Shown here piece after piece: positions 8,883-19,757 of a stretch of DNA of 64,000 nucleotides. How positions within the stretch are numbered: the first letter of the stretch is position 1; each line of letters begins with the position of its first letter. The DNA is taken from NCBI GenBank assembly GCA_008632985.1, contig QPGO01000004.1, forward strand, positions 496,001 to 560,000, given 5' to 3'. The translations under genes were made by a program, and so were the position numbers. The DNA is from Psammoneis japonica. Its lineage: Eukaryota. Below the pieces are notes generated by a model that made no database searches, had not been told where the DNA came from, and was given only the letters and a program-made list of their open reading frames with translations.

Positions 8883-10127
8883 TCATCTCCAAGTGAAGTC
8901 GCGAAATCGATTCGGGAAAAACCGAATCGTCTCTAGGGTCGTATCTCGACACAGAAAACCATTTCGTTCAGCTGCAAGTAATTGTTCATGAGCCAAGAGA
9001 GCCGATATCTGAAGAGCGCGACCTGCATCGAGCGAAGTGATATTGCCAGATTCTTCCGCCAAGGCAAGAAGTTTCTTTGCCATAACGCTTTCGTCAAAGG
9101 CATCTTCTTGCACAACTCGGACACCACTGGGAAAATTGCGCTGAGACATACCTAGTTTCAAGTCTTTCATACACTCCAACGCCTTTAGCAAATCTTCTGG
9201 TGATATAAGATTGGTTCCACGAGCTCGATTGAAGTAACAATACACGTCTGTCAAAGTCATGAGTCCTCCCGCTGATTTAAGTTTGGGTCGTAAGAAATCG
9301 GCCAACTGACGAGCCAGTGTGTCATAATAGTCACCTCGATGATCATTTTTGGACAATGCCGAAGTCATACCCATATCTTGGAGCATATCACTTAAGCGAT
9401 TTGCATCCTCCCGAGAGGCGTTGGATTGATCTTTTGACTCTAGCGTTCGAACGTACTTTTGAATAATCGTTACAAGCTCCGTTGCTTCTCTCAGTAGTGT
9501 TTCTGCATCACCCTCAAAGGCCTCATCGGTCAGTTTTGCTGCTTCCTTGTGTCGGAGAGCATTCTTTGTGAGAATGGCATCGACACCAACCTTACGTTTC
9601 ACGATATTACTGGCAGTGTTTTGCTTTGCTTCGATCCTGCTTGCAGTCTCCCACGCCCTTCGTTCAAGAGCCTTCTGCAATTTCTGTAGCATATCATCCC
9701 GATCCTTTCCTGTCGACGTGTTGGCGGTGGCATGAAACTTCAAGACCAACTGACCAACATACGCATGCACAGCAATCTTGGGGCTTTTGATAGCAGTCAT
9801 GAGACCACTGCTGGCACCCGCCGTATCCACCTGATGAACATTGCTCAGGTGCAAGAAGCGCGATTCCTTTTCTTTCATAAAGACAATGCGATGTGTTGTT
9901 ACTGTAACCACCAAGTCTGTGTTGCGATCGACCCACAATGCACCAAACGCACTGGAGACCTTTTCGTCGATGGGAACCATGGGCTCATTCGATTCCGATC
10001 TCAGCTCCATCTCATCGCGACGCATAAGCTCCACTTCTCCATCCGAAGAGTCTAATACGAGGAGACCAGAAGGCGTGAGAGGTGCCTTGGGAAGGCACAT
10101 TATGGGGGACCATGCCGGTTCCGTCAT
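8883..10127 (-). CDS. VPS36: ESCRT-II subunit Vps36 (GLUE domain + EAP30/Vps36 winged helices)
   Basis: VTTHRIVF and KSPKI (GLUE); DEAFEGDAETLLREATELV; LARQLADFL; GGLMTLTDVYCYFNRARGTNLISPEDL; C-terminal FFPNRF. Confidence 0.92.
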   Translation of the reverse strand: MTEPAWSPIMCLPKAPLTPSGLLVLDSSDGEVELMRRDEMELRSESNEPMVPIDEKVSSAFGALWVDRNTDLVVTVTTHRIVFMKEKESRFLHLSNVHQVDTAGASSGLMTAIKSPKIAVHAYVGQLVLKFHATANTSTGKDRDDMLQKLQKALERRAWETASRIEAKQNTASNIVKRKVGVDAILTKNALRHKEAAKLTDEAFEGDAETLLREATELVTIIQKYVRTLESKDQSNASREDANRLSDMLQDMGMTSALSKNDHRGDYYDTLARQLADFLRPKLKSAGGLMTLTDVYCYFNRARGTNLISPEDLLKALECMKDLKLGMSQRNFPSGVRVVQEDAFDESVMAKKLLALAEESGNITSLDAGRALQISALLAHEQLLAAERNGFLCRDTTLETIRFFPNRFRDFTWR

Positions 10128-12253: not shown

Positions 12254-15200
12254 TTAGCTGTGCACTCGCGCCTTGGCGAGCTTGACAATCTTCTTCAACT
12301 CGCTTGTTGGTACAAGATAACATCTATGGCGGTCGGTCGGATCAGCTCGACTGAGGATTCCAATCACTCTGCCTTGTTCATTAAAACAAGGTCCTCCACT
12401 GTGACCACTTATGGTGGGGCAAATGACAACAATCTCTTCGCGAGGAGTAAACCAGCGGTTCGGAGCCAACTTGAGCGACTCTGAACTAGACAATGAAGTG
12501 GTATCTGGAATATCGTCGAGCGCCGCCTTGAACTTTTTGCAGACATAGCCTTTCGCAAGATCGACGCATCGGTTGACGTGCTTCCCCTTTTGTAGAATGC
12601 CTTCTCCACCCTGATTGAAGCCTACAATGCGCACCCTGTCTTCGAGTTCGCACTTGCGAGTCATCTTTAGATGCTGAAGGCTTTCGCCCTTAAAAGTCTC
12701 CGCGCCGTCGTGGAAAGGGATAATCTTTTCGTCGGCACAACCCTCGCCATCTCCGCCAACGTCGTTTTCAAACTTCGAGACAATGTTGAGCACGCAAGCG
12801 TCCATGTTGTGGACGTCGTGCGACACGATTTCGGCAAAATACCGAAACACGGCAGTCTCTTCACCCTTGGGAATGACGCCGACAACAGCCTTGGCATCTT
12901 TCAAACCCCAATACGGGCAACCGAAATCACCTTCTTCAGACATATCAAATAGTACATGAGCAGCCGTAACGACCAGGCCATGCTTAGAGTCGGCAACAAA
13001 GCCGGATCCAACATTGCGGATTTTCTTGCTTTCCGCATCCCAGAGACCAACCACAACAACTCCGCCAAGCAGACTAGATACCGGCGTTGAAACACAAGGA
13101 GGCATGCCATATTGATGGCGATGACTGGGCTGAGGAGCTCGACATGCACCGCACAACATGTTCGCATCTGCAAGGTGACCTCGAATGCACCGAATGTTGG
13201 GGTTGCCGCACTCTACCGCAGAGCGTACGCAATCCCAAGACCAGTTGGTCGCTTCCGTGTGGTGAGACTCCGCGAGACATTCTGGGCAAGCAATTTGCCT
13301 TTCTACATTGCCAGCCAAAAAGGACACCGAGGCCTTGATCGAATCGAGTACAAGGCCGTATCCGCCCTTCCACAACTTTCTTCCGTCGTGACCAGACTGT
13401 CCTTTGCCGGAAACGATGAGCTTCTTCACGCCACTTCCCATTGAGGTCGACGCAACGCAGTGGTGACTCTGTTGATCCGCGAGTGAAACAAATACTTCAA
13501 CGACGCTTTCTCGGATCTGACCACTCTCGGGATCTTCAAAGAAACATCCAATGTTGACAACCAATGAAGACTTCCAGCACATGATCTGATGGATCTTGAT
13601 TCGCCCTACAACTTGTGCCTCGTCTTCTTCTAATATCCTTGGCTCCAGATCTTGATCGAGAGGATACGACAAGGAACGATGGCACGCCTTTGGTCTTGAA
13701 TGGGTGCTGCTTTCAGAAAAGGCATACAAGTCTTCAAGCAGCGAGACGGTGATGCGCTCCATCATGTTCGGAGGTGCGCCATCGCGCAGCAGCCAAGAGT
13801 GACAAAGCGTTGTCATCCAACTTTGGCTTGACCTGTATGTCCACACATTGTGCGGTTCTGCCTGGGGAAGCATACCGGGAACAAGAAAGACCTCTTCGTT
13901 GCTGGATTCTCGTTCTGTTGGCATAGTCAACGGTACAAAGACACCGGAATGCACAAGCAAACGCTTGAGGAAACCAAACACATTCTCTGGAGACGTCGTT
14001 GACGAAACGTTAGCACTCTTATCAGCGGCTTCGCGCATAAAGTTCATAGATTGCCAAAGCATGGACGCATCACTGGAGCTCAGCACAGGGCAGTTGGAGT
14101 TGCTGCCGCCCAGCAAGGTGCGAGTGACATCTCCTTCCGTGTAGTGCTGACCACTGTATTCACATTGCATATTCATAAAGTTCCTCGTCTCAATAAGTTC
14201 ATTCTTCAAGTCATCGCACAGGATGCAGGAGAGCGCCGAGACGAGCCACTTTCGGCACAGCACAATGTAGTTGGTCAACAAGTCATTCTCGTCGTCGTTT
14301 CCAAAGTACAAGACTTCGCCAACGGTGGAAAGGAAGCGTAGGGACTCCAGAATCTCAGCGGTGGAACAGGTGACTCCTTCAGCCACCAAGTGATCCACAA
14401 GCACAACCTTGTGGTTGTCCTTTCGCAAACTACGAACAGCTTCCAAAACCTCTACTGTTCCTTTCGGAACCGGGGCACCAACGTGTCCAAAGACTTCCTG
14501 ATCGCGACCAGAGGTTGCAACATCAAGAATGGCGTTCTTGAGTTGATCCACACCTTCCTTCATATCGACACGAAGGACAGCAGAGTCATTCGCCAGCCTG
14601 GGAGGGTTACGGAGCGCTTGAATGTGCTCCATCAAGATGGCTTGCATCATGCTGCAACGACGTTGAGCTTCAAACTCGTCCATACCCTCAGGTAGAGTAG
14701 CCACAGGCAGAATCACAGCGTCACTTGTTGTGGCAGCAATTTGATCAACCCAGCAAAGGACACGGTCGTGAATGTCCACCTCGAGCGCACCGTCGGCTTG
14801 ACGATTGAGTCTCTCAAGAAGAAAATCATCGGCAACTTCATCCTCGTCTTCAGATTCGTCTTCTGGGATGCGTCGGTACGCAAGCGGGTTGCCACCCGCC
14901 ATATCCCACACCAGTACATACAGTGAATTCTCGGAAAAGAAGATGGACTGGGTGGCTGGATGCATACCGGCAGTCGCCTTGTCGTTCACGTCCCATACAC
15001 TGATTCGAACTTGCTTTTTGAAAGATGCACCATCGTCTCGATGCTCGACCGTCTTAGTTGTAAAGGCGTTGACGTCAACACCCAAAAGTGTGGATCGTCG
15101 TCTCTTTCTGCTGACACTCCCCTTACGGAGTGCTCGTGCCAACGTCGACTTGCCTGTATGGGGAGCTCCAACCATGACAACCTTGAGAGTATCATTGTAC

Positions 15201-16330
15201 ACGTCCTCGTCGGACGAAGAAGCCTTGCTAAGAGGAGCATGCTGAGGACCCTCGACCGGGTCCGACGCAATGGTTGCCACGCTCGATTCAAGGTCCGTCG
15301 AATATTCTTCATCTTCTTCTTGCAACTGTACAGCACCGGTCGTTAGATAGCTGTCAATCTTGTCAACCTTTTCGGGTGGTCCCCAAGTCAACTCGTCCAC
15401 CTTGTCATCTAATTCAATGTATGCATCAGCAGAAGTGCAAGCCGGCAATAGACCAGCCTCGAGCAATTGATCAGCGTTTCCAATGAGATGAGCCTCAGCA
15501 GTGGGTGGTGATGAGGGAGTGTATTCGTGGGCCAACGCCACCTCTTGTACAATTTGTTCTTGGTGCTGTTGTTGATGTTGATGCTGCTGTTGTTGTTGTA
15601 TCGCGGATATTTCTTCTTCTCCGCTCGTATTGATACGTCTTCTGCGCTTCTTTTTGTTTTTCTTGTTTTTTCGTTTTGCTGGAGCAGGTGTATCATATGT
15701 GAATTCTTCTTCTCCGTTCCGTGGAGAGGCTTTTCTCGACGTTCTCTTTCGAATCCATCTGCCAAATCGCTTCAGTTGTCTCGTTTTGCACGCTTTCTTC
15801 GCCAGCAACATGGCTTCAACTTCTTCTGGAGTCGGTGGAAGCGACGACGGTACCGCCACCAAATCACCGTCAATCAGCACAAAGTCGGCATCGTCAAACT
15901 CCGCGTCTCCATAACTGTCTGAAACTACTGAACGAAGCGTCGGAGCGTTGCTGTCGAGGGCAGCCGGGACTGCTGGCTCACTTCTTATACTCGTGACTGG
16001 AACAGCGGCGCTTGCAACGTTGTTGCTGCCGTCGGCTTGAATGGTTTCACCGGTAGGATATATATGTCCTACACTGGATCGCACCAGATTCGAAACAAAC
16101 GTGGCAACGGGATATGTGTATCCCTGTGAAACTTGACGTGCGGGAACGTCCGCGGAGGGAGCCTCATCGTTTTCTCCTTCATCTGATTCATTCAATACAA
16201 TCGCTGGAGCGACTGGTGGTTCTGTGGATGGTGGATAACTCCATTCTCTTAATAGCGTTGGTGTCTCTATTGTTGTTGCAACGTCGGTAGACTCCGGAGC
16301 TGCAGCAGCGGCAACACTCGTCATGGTCAA
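12254..16330 (-). CDS. Roco-like protein: disordered N-terminus - ROC GTPase-like - COR - Cys/His cluster - trypsin-like serine protease
   Basis: ROC: KVVMVGAPHTGKST, ISVWD, ATQSIFFSENSLYVLVWD. COR: LRFLSTVGEVLYF, IVLCRKWL, FLVPGMLP. Cys/His cluster: CPEC...CIRGH...CGAC. Protease: GSGF, VTAAHV, DACVL, ISGHSGGP. Confidence 0.85.
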   Translation of the reverse strand: MTMTSVAAAAAPESTDVATTIETPTLLREWSYPPSTEPPVAPAIVLNESDEGENDEAPSADVPARQVSQGYTYPVATFVSNLVRSSVGHIYPTGETIQADGSNNVASAAVPVTSIRSEPAVPAALDSNAPTLRSVVSDSYGDAEFDDADFVLIDGDLVAVPSSLPPTPEEVEAMLLAKKACKTRQLKRFGRWIRKRTSRKASPRNGEEEFTYDTPAPAKRKNKKNKKKRRRRINTSGEEEISAIQQQQQHQHQQQHQEQIVQEVALAHEYTPSSPPTAEAHLIGNADQLLEAGLLPACTSADAYIELDDKVDELTWGPPEKVDKIDSYLTTGAVQLQEEDEEYSTDLESSVATIASDPVEGPQHAPLSKASSSDEDVYNDTLKVVMVGAPHTGKSTLARALRKGSVSRKRRRSTLLGVDVNAFTTKTVEHRDDGASFKKQVRISVWDVNDKATAGMHPATQSIFFSENSLYVLVWDMAGGNPLAYRRIPEDESEDEDEVADDFLLERLNRQADGALEVDIHDRVLCWVDQIAATTSDAVILPVATLPEGMDEFEAQRRCSMMQAILMEHIQALRNPPRLANDSAVLRVDMKEGVDQLKNAILDVATSGRDQEVFGHVGAPVPKGTVEVLEAVRSLRKDNHKVVLVDHLVAEGVTCSTAEILESLRFLSTVGEVLYFGNDDENDLLTNYIVLCRKWLVSALSCILCDDLKNELIETRNFMNMQCEYSGQHYTEGDVTRTLLGGSNSNCPVLSSSDASMLWQSMNFMREAADKSANVSSTTSPENVFGFLKRLLVHSGVFVPLTMPTERESSNEEVFLVPGMLPQAEPHNVWTYRSSQSWMTTLCHSWLLRDGAPPNMMERITVSLLEDLYAFSESSTHSRPKACHRSLSYPLDQDLEPRILEEDEAQVVGRIKIHQIMCWKSSLVVNIGCFFEDPESGQIRESVVEVFVSLADQQSHHCVASTSMGSGVKKLIVSGKGQSGHDGRKLWKGGYGLVLDSIKASVSFLAGNVERQIACPECLAESHHTEATNWSWDCVRSAVECGNPNIRCIRGHLADANMLCGACRAPQPSHRHQYGMPPCVSTPVSSLLGGVVVVGLWDAESKKIRNVGSGFVADSKHGLVVTAAHVLFDMSEEGDFGCPYWGLKDAKAVVGVIPKGEETAVFRYFAEIVSHDVHNMDACVLNIVSKFENDVGGDGEGCADEKIIPFHDGAETFKGESLQHLKMTRKCELEDRVRIVGFNQGGEGILQKGKHVNRCVDLAKGYVCKKFKAALDDIPDTTSLSSSESLKLAPNRWFTPREEIVVICPTISGHSGGPCFNEQGRVIGILSRADPTDRHRCYLVPTSELKKIVKLAKARVHS

Positions 16331-16987: not shown

Positions 16988-19757
16988 TCATTCCAAATAG
17001 ACCACCAACACGCTCACATTATCCGTCGTACCCTTTTCGAGCGCTGAGCTGCAAAGCGCTTTGGCCGCATCACCGGGACTCATTCCGTTTCGTCTCTTGG
17101 AAATCACCTCCTTGCCAACCAATTCGTTGTCCATGACTTCAAACAATCCATCCGTCGCAAGGATCAAGCAACAATCAGACCTGTCCGCCAACAATTGTGA
17201 AAGTGGAACCTCGTCAACATCTGGGTCACTCACAATGCCCTTACTTGTTGCAAACGAGCCTTCCAACGATCGGCTCACGGCGTATTGATAATCCCCCACA
17301 GATAACCAATATTTGGATAGCGAGCATTGAGGCAACGAGTAACCCAGTCCCTCACTCCTGCCCTTTTCCAATCTTTGTGCCTCTGCATCACTGGAAGGAG
17401 AATGATCCGTTGTGGACCAACAACACACGCTCTTGCTGTCGCTTGATTTGCCCACTACGAGGGTTCGTGAATCACCGCAATTGAGAACAGACATGGTTTC
17501 GACAAACTCATGTGACGGTATTGTCAAGACGGATGCAGTGGTTCCCGCCGCAATGGTATCGGATCCAGTATTTGCCTTTAATGTGCCTTCTCGGGAATCG
17601 TATTCGGCAATACAAATGTCGGATTCCTTATCACAGCCGTCTCGATAGGCGTCGCAAGTTGTGGTCCAAGCGCCTTGAAGAGAATCAAGGCTACCGTCCG
17701 CAATAAGCGTGGGCATGACTTTGGACGCCATTTCTGATGCTGCTGTACCGGCGTGTCCGTCAAAGACACCCGCTACTAAAATGGGACGGTCTTTGTCATT
17801 TGCATTTTGTACTTCATGGAGGACTGTCGTTGTTGAGAGAACGCAAAGGATTGAGCAACAAGGAGAGCCAGATTTCGGTAACAAATCTCTCACTCAACAT
17901 CCTCTGTACTCACCAAAATTGTCTTCTTGCGTTTTCCGTCGACCCTTTGTGGACCAAGCACCTTGTTGCAAGACTCGTACTAAGTGAGGTGCTGCAGCAG
18001 TCGCTGGAGGTTTTGTGGATGGCTGTCGATCAAACTGGACCTTGACCGTCTTTGCTCTCGGTGGTTGTTGTTCCAACATACTCACCACCTTTTCAAACCC
18101 TCCTTGTGCCAGTGGCAACTCTCCAACGCCTTCGAGACGATCCCCAATTTCAAAAATATCCATTTGATCTGCCTGACCGTACTGAACGATTTCCTTGACA
18201 AAGACCTCTCCCTCCCTTGCATTCTTGGTTGCTTCTCGCCATTTGGCCAAGTCTTGTGGGTCCATATCATCCACATCCTCGTCGTCGGGTTCGGATAAAA
18301 CTAATCCCAGCGAGAGCTTTCTTTCAAAGGTGGCTACAAAATGCAACGGTCGAGCTGAAGGTGTAGTCTCAGCTTCTACAAACAAGGGAACATCGCACGT
18401 CTCCATAGCTGCAACAACGGATTCAAAGAAGGAACCGTCCACACTATCAACCTCCGTTTCTTGCTGCAGTACTTGCTCCAACACCTTTCTTGCCTTGCTC
18501 GATGAACATCGCCGTTCTGGATCAACGTGCAGCATGTTACGCAACAAGTTCCAAAGTCCCCGTCGCTCGCCCAAATACAAGAGAGCATCGTCCAACCCAT
18601 CGGGGCGGACTTTGGATGATAACTCACGGGACAGCCACGTGTCCAAATCATAATTCGCATCAATCAATTGTTGATGAAAGCCAGCGTCGGTGCGTTCGTC
18701 CAAGTAATTAAAGAGCAACTGACAAAAGACCAACCCCACAGAGTACACGTCAAAGTTGAGTGGTTCACTGTCGAGTATGATTCACGTTTGACGGTAGGCA
18801 GATCAAAGATAAGTAACAAGATGCTCTAACCAACAAGATGTGCGCAGGTGCCTACCTTTTTGGTTTGATGAAAACTTCAGGCGCCGAGTAAACGGGAGAG
18901 AGCGCTACCCTGTTTTCGTTTTCAATCCCTACAAAACGCTCGCCTCCAAACAGATTCTTCGATATGGGCTCCATGTCGGCCGCCGATCCAAAATCAAACA
19001 ACACGAGCCCTTGGTCGGCAGTTAGCAGGTTGGATGGTTTGAAATCTCGATGAACAATGGAAAGCGAGTGCGTAAAAACTAGGCAGTCAAGCATGGATTT
19101 CAGTAGCGTGTCCAAGGTTCGTCCCAATCCATCTTCGTCCTCTGCTGGTGGTAATCCCATTTCCTTTTCAATCATGTACAAGTGGTGATGGTTCTCTGAC
19201 GGATCGTGCTGATCGGTCCAGTCAAGTTTCATGACTTGATCCAACGTCAGAGCCGGTGATTCACTGCTTCTTTGTTTGATAACTTCAAATAGCATCCAAG
19301 AATGTTGATCAGAATCCTCCATGGTCCCTCTGTAAATTGGAACAAGCTCGGACGGCTCTTTAGCCATTTTCTCAAAACAATGTTTTTCCACGTCAAAGTA
19401 GTATTTGCACCGTTCTGCACGTTCCTTGGGATCAGAAGTGTGCTTTTGAATCACTTCATCGTTTTCATCCCAAGCTCGCTTGCAAATTAATGTCTCTCCA
19501 TCTACAGAACACAAATGCACCGTTCCATAACTCCCAGAACCAACTTCTTGACCAATTTCCAGTGTTGTGGTCGCGCTCGATGCCGCAGTCGCTTGGAGAA
19601 GAGTGTTTTGACAATGTCTCGATGGTTTAAGAAGTGCTGCTCTTTTCACGGAGAATGTGGTAGCCGTATATATCGACAAGGCAACAATCAACAGTCGCGA
19701 CACGTTCGTTGCGGTGCCAAGAACCGTCATGGTGGGATGAAGTTGCAACAAACGCAC
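16988..19757 (-). CDS. Spliced STN7/STN8-like Ser/Thr kinase - PDZ-like - PP2C phosphatase fusion with putative plastid presequence (~860 aa)
   Basis: Exons 19757(or 19730)-18856, 18767-17914 and 17823-16988, with frame-preserving GT-AG introns of 88 and 90 bp. Kinase motifs GSGSYG, ICK, HRDFKPSN, DFG, APE, DVYSVG. PP2C motifs GRRKTQED, FDGHAG, GTT, NCGDSR, DH, VSRSL, ATDGLF, GTTDNVS. Confidence 0.88.

Follow-up and report, generated by a model that had tools for sequence, protein, structure and literature searches.

A diatom Roco-family protein without leucine-rich repeats and with a PDZ-less HtrA/DegP-type serine protease as its output domain

Introduction

On the minus strand of a 64 000-nucleotide stretch of the genome of Psammoneis japonica (GenBank assembly GCA_008632985.1, contig QPGO01000004.1, positions 496 001 to 560 000; this whole stretch is called the window below) lies a gene whose product, according to a preliminary description made from the DNA letters, joins the ROC and COR domains of Roco proteins to a trypsin-like serine protease. 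Roco proteins have mostly been studied through LRRK2, the Parkinson's disease kinase, and the manner in which ROC-COR controls the output of these proteins is debated. The locus raises the question of whether such a fusion is genuine and, if so, what a ROC-COR module does for a protease.

The diatom gene is intact, and it encodes a Roco-family protein that lacks leucine-rich repeats (LRRs) and has as its output domain a serine protease of the HtrA/DegP type devoid of a PDZ domain. In the clade of LRR-less relatives to which it belongs, the GTP-binding motifs are decaying and the protease triad is invariant, whereas the sister clade, which has LRRs, is canonical. The family constitutes a natural comparison for LRRK2, the same ROC-COR-output chassis carrying a protease instead of a kinase, and its two apparently old paralogues (one with LRRs and canonical GTP motifs, the other LRR-less and eroded) would allow regulation of a Roco output without a GTP cycle to be tested. 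For diatom biology, it adds a conserved, probably intracellular protease with a potential role in stress, death or trafficking pathways. The ROC-COR-peptidase fusion itself is already in print (PMC11378527, PMC8195603); the value of the present analysis lies in the clade-level motif decay, a Cys-Cys-Cys-His (CCCH) site and a set of N-terminal motifs.

The gene and the domain architecture of its product

The open reading frame (ORF) listing of the window contains one unbroken minus-strand ORF of 1358 codons at 12254..16330. Translation would start at codon 3, the first ATG (16324-16322), whose Met is almost invariant among aligned orthologues (28-row alignment A2); the coding sequence was therefore placed at 12254..16324 (1356 codons from the first ATG, single exon, stop at 12254-12256). 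All features of the gene given below are on the minus strand, and residue numbers run from ORF codon 1, the first Met being residue 3 and the last residue 1358. The span proposed earlier, 12254-15190, does cover the gene from the ROC domain to the stop, but the gene runs about 1.1 kb further, to 16324. Since relatives align without a break over 99-100% of residues 370-1358, no intron is present in that part. The domain order is a disordered N-terminus, ROC, COR-A, COR-B, the CCCH site and the protease. A search of the 64-kb window for a second copy of the gene (tblastn, residues 371-1358) matched only the gene itself.

The ROC G domain occupies residues ~371-615 (14486..15220; the C-terminal boundary is approximate), as judged from Pfam, sequence and fold matches. 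Pfam Roc was found at residues 383-477 with 33.1 bits (cut-off 27), the solved structures matched best in sequence are the LRRK1 (E = 4.7e-5) and LRRK2 Roc domains, and a family profile search reached LRRK2 at E = 5e-13, together with M. barkeri Roco2, C. tepidum Roco and HtrA1/HtrA2. No NB-ARC or NACHT domain (STAND ATPases) was found by Pfam at E<=1; the NTPase is a Ras-like Roc and its fold matches are Roco proteins. COR-A (residues ~616-805; 13916..14485) was delimited from a Pfam match (656-706, 20.9 bits) that is below the cut-off of 35.3, from a fold match and from alignment of the family profile to LRRK2; PF16095 is precomputed on many relatives. COR-B (residues ~806-1008; 13307..13915) was placed by its fold match to LRRK2 and LRRK1.

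Residues 371-1358 were modelled with AlphaFold2 from a 46-sequence alignment; the model has a mean predicted local distance difference test score (pLDDT) of 82.0 and a predicted template modelling score (pTM) of 0.75. When this model was compared with the PDB by Foldseek, LRRK1 came first (E = 2e-20), then LRRK2, C. tepidum Roco (6hlu, 3dpu) and DegP/DegS/Deg2 (about 1e-10). With VIA-align, the RocCOR structure of M. barkeri Roco2 (4wnr) matched model positions 1-450 at Z 25.2 (rmsd, root-mean-square deviation, 3.3; 308 aligned), LRRK2 1329-1867 matched 6-697 at Z 23.3, and LRRK1 632-1233 matched 5-697 at Z 23.1. A structure prediction had been proposed in the preliminary description as a check of the ROC/COR fold, which these matches support. 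They thus provide support for ROC, COR-A, COR-B and, with the protease matches below, the HtrA-type protease domain, and the presence of COR is confirmed by the predicted structure despite the sub-cut-off Pfam score. A two-copy complex prediction for residues 806-1070, in which the alignment was unused and the fold uncertain, gave no supported complex and has no bearing on dimerisation.

The protease (12257..13120) is of the S1 type with a chymotrypsin fold, as indicated by a Pfam Trypsin_2 match at 1108-1325 (53.1 bits, cut-off 27.6), by fold matches and by its triad. The closest fold is that of E. coli DegQ (3stj; VIA-align Z 23.5, rmsd 3.0, 194 aligned, model 707-986); DegP, DegS, HtrA1 and plant Deg1 match at Z 22-23. 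Its loops are long, with low confidence at model positions 872-876 and 903-920. The predicted catalytic residues are H1125 in TAAH (12956-12958), D1177 in MDACVL (12800-12802) and S1311 in GHSGGP (12398-12400); this combination, rightly described earlier as a complete apparent triad, reads H-D-S in 225 of the 233 fetched relatives covering the protease. No PDZ domain was found after the protease by Pfam at E<=1, the protein ending about 30 residues past Trypsin_2, and the protease is thus HtrA-like yet not a canonical HtrA. With Pfam Roc and Trypsin_2, a confident model, and Roco and DegQ fold matches in agreement, the fusion of ROC-COR to a trypsin-fold protease is borne out.

Between COR-B and the protease lies a putative zinc-site segment (residues 1009-1070; 13121..13306). 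Its ligand candidates C1015, C1018, C1048 and H1052 keep the C-C-C-H pattern in 226 of 229 relatives, which suggests bound zinc. Here a CxxC/CxxGH/CxxC cluster had been noted. The first two elements are well conserved, but the last CxxC does not qualify as a further zinc-binding element of the family: C1060 is found in 135/229 relatives and C1063 in 65/229.

Nucleotide-binding motifs and two paralogous clades

The claim of an intact P-loop combined with degenerate G3 and G4 motifs proved correct, and at the places named for it. The G1/P-loop motif, GAPHTGKS (residues 388-395; 15146..15169), is canonical; G3 reads WDVNDK (residues 446-451; 14978..14995), with its Asp retained and Asp450 in place of the DxxG glycine; and a search of the window protein for NKxD (G4) gave none. 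The canonical G1-G4 set is thus incomplete, G1 being present, G3 reading DVND and NKxD missing. In the profile alignment, E-G-M-D of the window protein (548-551) faces T-H-L-D of LRRK2, which we take to be the LRRK2 equivalent of G4, and the family pattern 'LPVA..PEGM.' is opposite LRRK2 'PVILVGTHLD'. The Asp position of E-G-M-D is variable across the family (S 68, D 39 and E 18 of 176). The ROC domain has, in addition, a family-specific acidic insertion followed by a long helix, both lying between strands 4 and 5 (residues ~475-535; 14726..14908). The insertion spans about 50 profile positions versus about 6 residues in LRRK2; the helix is at model positions 132-164 and pLDDT is low at 122-126. 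Both elements are common to the LRR and LRR-less clades and missing in LRRK2.

To compare relatives, all fetched proteins were aligned to the profile of alignment A1, and the 154 covering ROC, COR and protease were then sorted into three groups, two of which are clades considered here: an LRR clade (n = 25), recognized by a P-loop starting with 'GM', and an LRR-less clade (n = 96, query included), with at least 38% identity to the query. A canonical GxxxxGK[ST] P-loop is found in 25/25 members of the LRR clade and in 5/96 of the LRR-less clade, where the residue preceding the P-loop Lys is Asp or Glu in 78/96 sequences (0/25 in the LRR clade). DxxG is present in 25/25 and 64/96, respectively, and both motifs are canonical together in 25/25 and 3/96. 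The H-D-S triad, on the other hand, is complete in all 25 and all 96. Dividing the mean pairwise identity of ROC by that of the protease gives 1.08 and 1.02 for the LRR clade, and 0.91 and 0.74 for the LRR-less clade. The window protein belongs to the 5 LRR-less members with a canonical P-loop, its G3 glycine being missing, and in the midpoint-rooted FastTree, the topology of which carries no test, it groups with P0005, P0096 (Attheya) and P0076, which have also kept the P-loop glycine. Among the named matches, Nitzschia sp. Nitz4 and Odontella each possess one LRR-less and one LRR form, which suggests that the duplication is old within diatoms.

Distribution of the family

A word-indexed search gave 243 relatives at E<=0.001 among 8000 scored candidates; among the best 120 of the 243, which constitute the matches listed, the closest is 55% identical. 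An exhaustive search of 1.84 billion cluster representatives gave 459 at E<=0.001, 354 at <=1e-10 and 220 at <=1e-30. Every listed match that names an organism, a minority of the matches, is from a diatom. Thirteen such rows are among the word-indexed matches listed: Nitzschia inconspicua, Seminavis robusta, Nitzschia sp. Nitz4 (two), a Bacillariaceae metagenome-assembled genome (MAG), Cylindrotheca fusiformis, Mayamaea pseudoterrestris, Epithemia clementina, 'Pseudo-'/'Pseud' (three), Attheya sp. and 'Odonte' (one). Relatives are also present in Leptocylindrus danicus, Odontella aurita and Chaetoceros debilis; the spread within diatoms thus extends from Leptocylindrus and Odontella through the raphid pennates. 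Orthologues are about 45-57% identical across diatoms and look low-copy. Transcriptome ORFs from MMETSP marked 'type:complete' (P0065, P0071, P0095 and P0149) run from ROC through the protease, and the fusion is therefore a single mRNA in these relatives.

In the protein cluster atlas, one related cluster was found at 0.98 (70 members, with Trypsin_2 in 100% and Roc in 26%), and the next match, at 0.75, was uninformative. A pattern-limited scan of prokaryotic genomes with alignment A1 matched 56 stretches and returned no relative of the architecture; the 1 confirmed stretch (L001, in a bacterial MAG) is a 23-residue match around the active-site serine only.

The N-terminal modules of the family are swappable, with LRRs (in the paralogous LRR clade) in 9/27 and WWE and/or U-box domains in 4/27 of the proteins scanned with Pfam. 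WWE and/or U-box domains placed before Roc-COR-Trypsin_2 define a third family branch (P0202, P0208, P0252, P0164 and P0210; also P0201 and P0179). In five proteins of this branch R-D-[T/I/F/S] replaces the H-D-S triad, and their P-loop has the form GxxKMGT[ST]; to judge from these residues, they look like pseudo-proteases joined to a ubiquitin-ligase module. One 1641-amino acid orthologue, P0032 from Seminavis robusta, has precomputed Trypsin_2, Roc and COR-A domains and is named 'NADH dehydrogenase (ubiquinone) complex I, assembly factor 6' in one source; the name was probably mis-transferred, or else the gene model is a merged one.

The N-terminal region and localisation

The N-terminal region (residues 3-370; 15221..16324) is predicted to be mostly disordered and has no repeat domain; no Pfam domain was found in it. 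The absence of LRRs reported earlier was upheld for the whole window protein, neither Pfam nor an LRR regular expression (0 matches) finding any. A model of the N-terminal 408 residues, in which numbering is residue minus 2, has a pLDDT of 55.1 and a pTM of 0.24, with only residues ~143-182 reaching 73-88.

Four short motifs stand out among 28 aligned orthologues. Motif 1, LLREWSY (residues 26-32; 16235..16255), is represented by an exact LREW in 19/28; motif 2, PPVAPAIV (residues 38-45; 16196..16219; family form PPVAPAVV), by PVAPA in 18/28; and motif 3, YTYPVATFVSNL (residues 71-82; 16085..16120; family form YPVATFV), by PVAT in 22/28. Motif 4, FDDADFVLIDGDLVAV (residues 145-160; 15851..15898), consists of an acidic run followed by aromatic-x-x-[IV]-D-G-D-L. 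Across orthologues it takes the form [FYW]-V-L-[IV]-D-G-D-L, the first position being aromatic in 23/28, Leu in 2 and unaligned in 3. It is the sole confidently folded element of the N-terminus, predicted as a beta-hairpin with strands at 147-151 and 154-158 (pLDDT 73-88), and its resemblance to what we take to be the consensus of the Atg8-interacting motif (LIR/AIM) is a lead only. A basic cluster resembling a nuclear localisation signal, PAKRKNKKNKKKRRRR, is found at residues 217-232 (15635..15682), and a K/R cluster (>=7 of 10) is present in the N-terminus of 48/86 clade members with an N-terminus of at least 150 amino acids.

A hydropathy scan, which is heuristic only, detected no signal peptide and no membrane helix, in line with the earlier view that the protein has no signal peptide and is probably intracellular; its location would be cytosolic or nuclear. 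An organellar Deg protease was considered and rejected, as there is no N-terminal hydrophobic segment (maximum 10-residue hydropathy of 1.49 in the first 40 residues). A membrane helix was likewise rejected, the top 19-residue window (1.7, residue 1079) being the first strand of the protease barrel.

Comparison with known systems

LRRK1/LRRK2, C. tepidum Roco and M. barkeri Roco2 resemble the window protein in the order ROC, COR-A, COR-B and in having the catalytic output C-terminal to COR. The output differs from that of LRRK1/LRRK2 in being a serine protease instead of a kinase. Unlike the LRRK proteins and prokaryotic Roco, the window protein is devoid of LRR, ankyrin, armadillo and WD40 repeats, its ROC domain has the acidic insertion (~45 residues) and lacks the DxxG glycine and NKxD, and the CCCH site is added after COR-B. 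With HtrA/DegP/DegQ/DegS/Deg proteases (S1C) it shares the protease fold (Z 22-23.5, rmsd about 3 over ~190-200 residues), the His-Asp-Ser order and G-x-S-G-G-P around the serine; however, it lacks a PDZ domain as well as signal and transit peptides, and its protease is fused behind ROC-COR.

Two published sets of proteins are closer in architecture. In brown algae, a ROCO 'group 3' of three members has a C-terminal peptidase domain, IPR009003, and nests among other SAR (stramenopile, alveolate and rhizarian) ROCOs, some likewise equipped with peptidase domains (Front Plant Sci 2024, PMC11378527). This group and the window gene have in common ROC-COR with a C-terminal PA-clan peptidase in stramenopiles, a low copy number and no LRR exon shuffling; group 3 is LRR-ROC-COR-peptidase whereas the window gene is LRR-less, a comparison made by description only (PMC11378527). 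In bacteria, trypsin is among at least 24 effector domains located C-terminal to LRR-AP-GTPase-COR (eLife 2021, PMC8195603). Such proteins share with the window protein a ROC (AP-GTPase)-COR module followed by a trypsin-fold effector, and the logic of an NTPase gating a destructive effector; they differ in having LRRs, multiple copies and swapped effectors, the window gene being eukaryotic, LRR-less and a conserved orthologue (PMC8195603). DAPK1 also has ROC-COR in a cell-death-linked multidomain protein (PMC8195603), but it lacks a protease, carrying a kinase and a death domain, and no specific sequence or fold match to it was found among the matches listed.

The architecture had been called unusual. 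That view is not supported, given 459 matching cluster representatives, a diatom-wide distribution, a sister clade with LRRs and the published peptidase and trypsin precedents. No LRR-less paralogue, eroded nucleotide pocket, CCCH site or set of N-terminal motifs of this kind was found in the parts of PMC11378527 and PMC8195603 that are cited here. In a term search, the words protease, peptidase, caspase and diatom all proved absent from the 2019 Roco review (PMC6337361), and no functional study of a Roco protease turned up in full-text literature searches.

Possible mode of action and alternative explanations

Our overall statement, which we put forward with moderate confidence, is that a Roco scaffold controls an HtrA-like protease, that its GTP switch is weakened and that input comes via the N-terminal motifs; the bulk of the doubt concerns the regulatory part. 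The protease would be the selected catalytic activity. ROC-COR would serve mainly as a regulatory or oligomerisation scaffold keeping the protease in an off or on conformation, by analogy with ROC-COR over the LRRK kinase and PDZ domains over HtrA. The motifs suggest that the window protein may still bind nucleotide but that loss of the DxxG glycine impairs switching. Phosphate binding should suffer from a side chain in place of the glycine preceding the P-loop lysine, and binding has probably been lost in most orthologues since that glycine is replaced by Asp or Glu. Partners binding the four short N-terminal motifs would provide the input in place of an LRR sensor, and the site of action would be the cytosol or the nucleus.

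Several points weigh against this reading. The window protein retains a canonical P-loop, a G2-like Thr and E-G-M-D opposite THLD, and may therefore be a working, if unusual, GTPase. Mean identity to clade members is 0.47 for the ROC core, 0.53 for COR-A, 0.49 for COR-B and 0.56 for the protease; as the value for the ROC core is not far under that for the protease, ROC is still under constraint. The clade split was made by simple rules and a midpoint-rooted FastTree with an untested topology, and 33/154 full-length sequences fall in neither clade. A more specific version of the proposal, in which the Roco module of the LRR-less clade is a nucleotide-independent pseudo-GTPase that gates the protease via the N-terminal motifs, residues 145-160 are Atg8-interacting and the protein is recruited to autophagic or endolysosomal membranes, we regard as improbable. 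Were it true, it would constitute an independent parallel to the membrane-trafficking role of LRRK2 and the first Roco output regulated without a GTP cycle.

The preliminary description inferred a quite different role, that of a protease activated by COR dimerisation and reminiscent of immunity or cell-death switches. In such an immune or programmed-cell-death switch, infection or stress would trigger COR-mediated dimerisation and thereby activate an NTPase-gated protease, by analogy with bacterial LRR-AP-GTPase-COR-effector proteins, apoptosomes and NLRs. The bacterial LRR-AP-GTPase-COR proteins with C-terminal effectors, including trypsin, are predicted to be counter-invader systems (PMC8195603), brown-algal LRR-ROCOs, with their small group carrying a C-terminal peptidase, are candidate immune receptors (PMC11378527), and swappable N-terminal modules occur in the diatom family as well. 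However, the window gene is without an LRR sensor, canonical GTP motifs are lost in its clade, and its orthologues look low-copy and are conserved across diatoms at the identities given above; the multi-copy diversification of the bacterial and brown-algal expansions was not seen among the named matches, where Nitz4 and Odontella show one LRR-less and one LRR form each. On sequence grounds, a fast-evolving NTPase immune sensor would not be expected to combine low-copy orthology with GTP-motif decay, and we consider such a switch unlikely. Stable low-copy conservation across diatoms would instead fit housekeeping quality control, as would an invariant triad beside an eroded P-loop and a protease fold nearest to the quality-control proteases DegP/DegQ/DegS/HtrA1: the HtrA-like domain would constitutively degrade misfolded cytosolic or nuclear proteins, and ROC-COR would be an inert oligomerising pseudo-GTPase scaffold. 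Yet COR-A and COR-B come close to the protease in conservation, the strong conservation of the N-terminal motifs suggests specific regulated interactions, and the PDZ domain that captures substrates is missing. Moreover, allosteric gating is usual in HtrA-type proteases. Constitutive quality control thus appears distinctly unlikely. As for the locus being an artefact, whether a pseudogene, an ORF arisen by chance or a pair of genes misread as one, the likelihood is negligible: the 1358 codons are uninterrupted, relatives are full-length at 99-100% coverage, complete transcriptome ORFs of relatives contain the fusion, and the model is confident across the domain junctions.

Neighbouring genes

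Base composition is about 50% G+C. The neighbours of the Roco-protease gene, an EAP30/Vps36 homologue and a PP2C phosphatase, are consistent with a compact eukaryotic genome. Downstream of the gene, at 8883-10127 (minus strand), a 414-amino acid ORF has an EAP30/Vps36 domain (E = 1.7e-44), and its product is probably the ESCRT-II subunit Vps36. At 16988-18748 (minus strand) two ORFs abut in different frames. The ORF at 17894-18748 is without a Pfam match at E<=0.001, the one at 16988-17893 has a PP2C phosphatase domain (E = 1.7e-26), and together they may form a single gene interrupted by a frameshift or a short intron.

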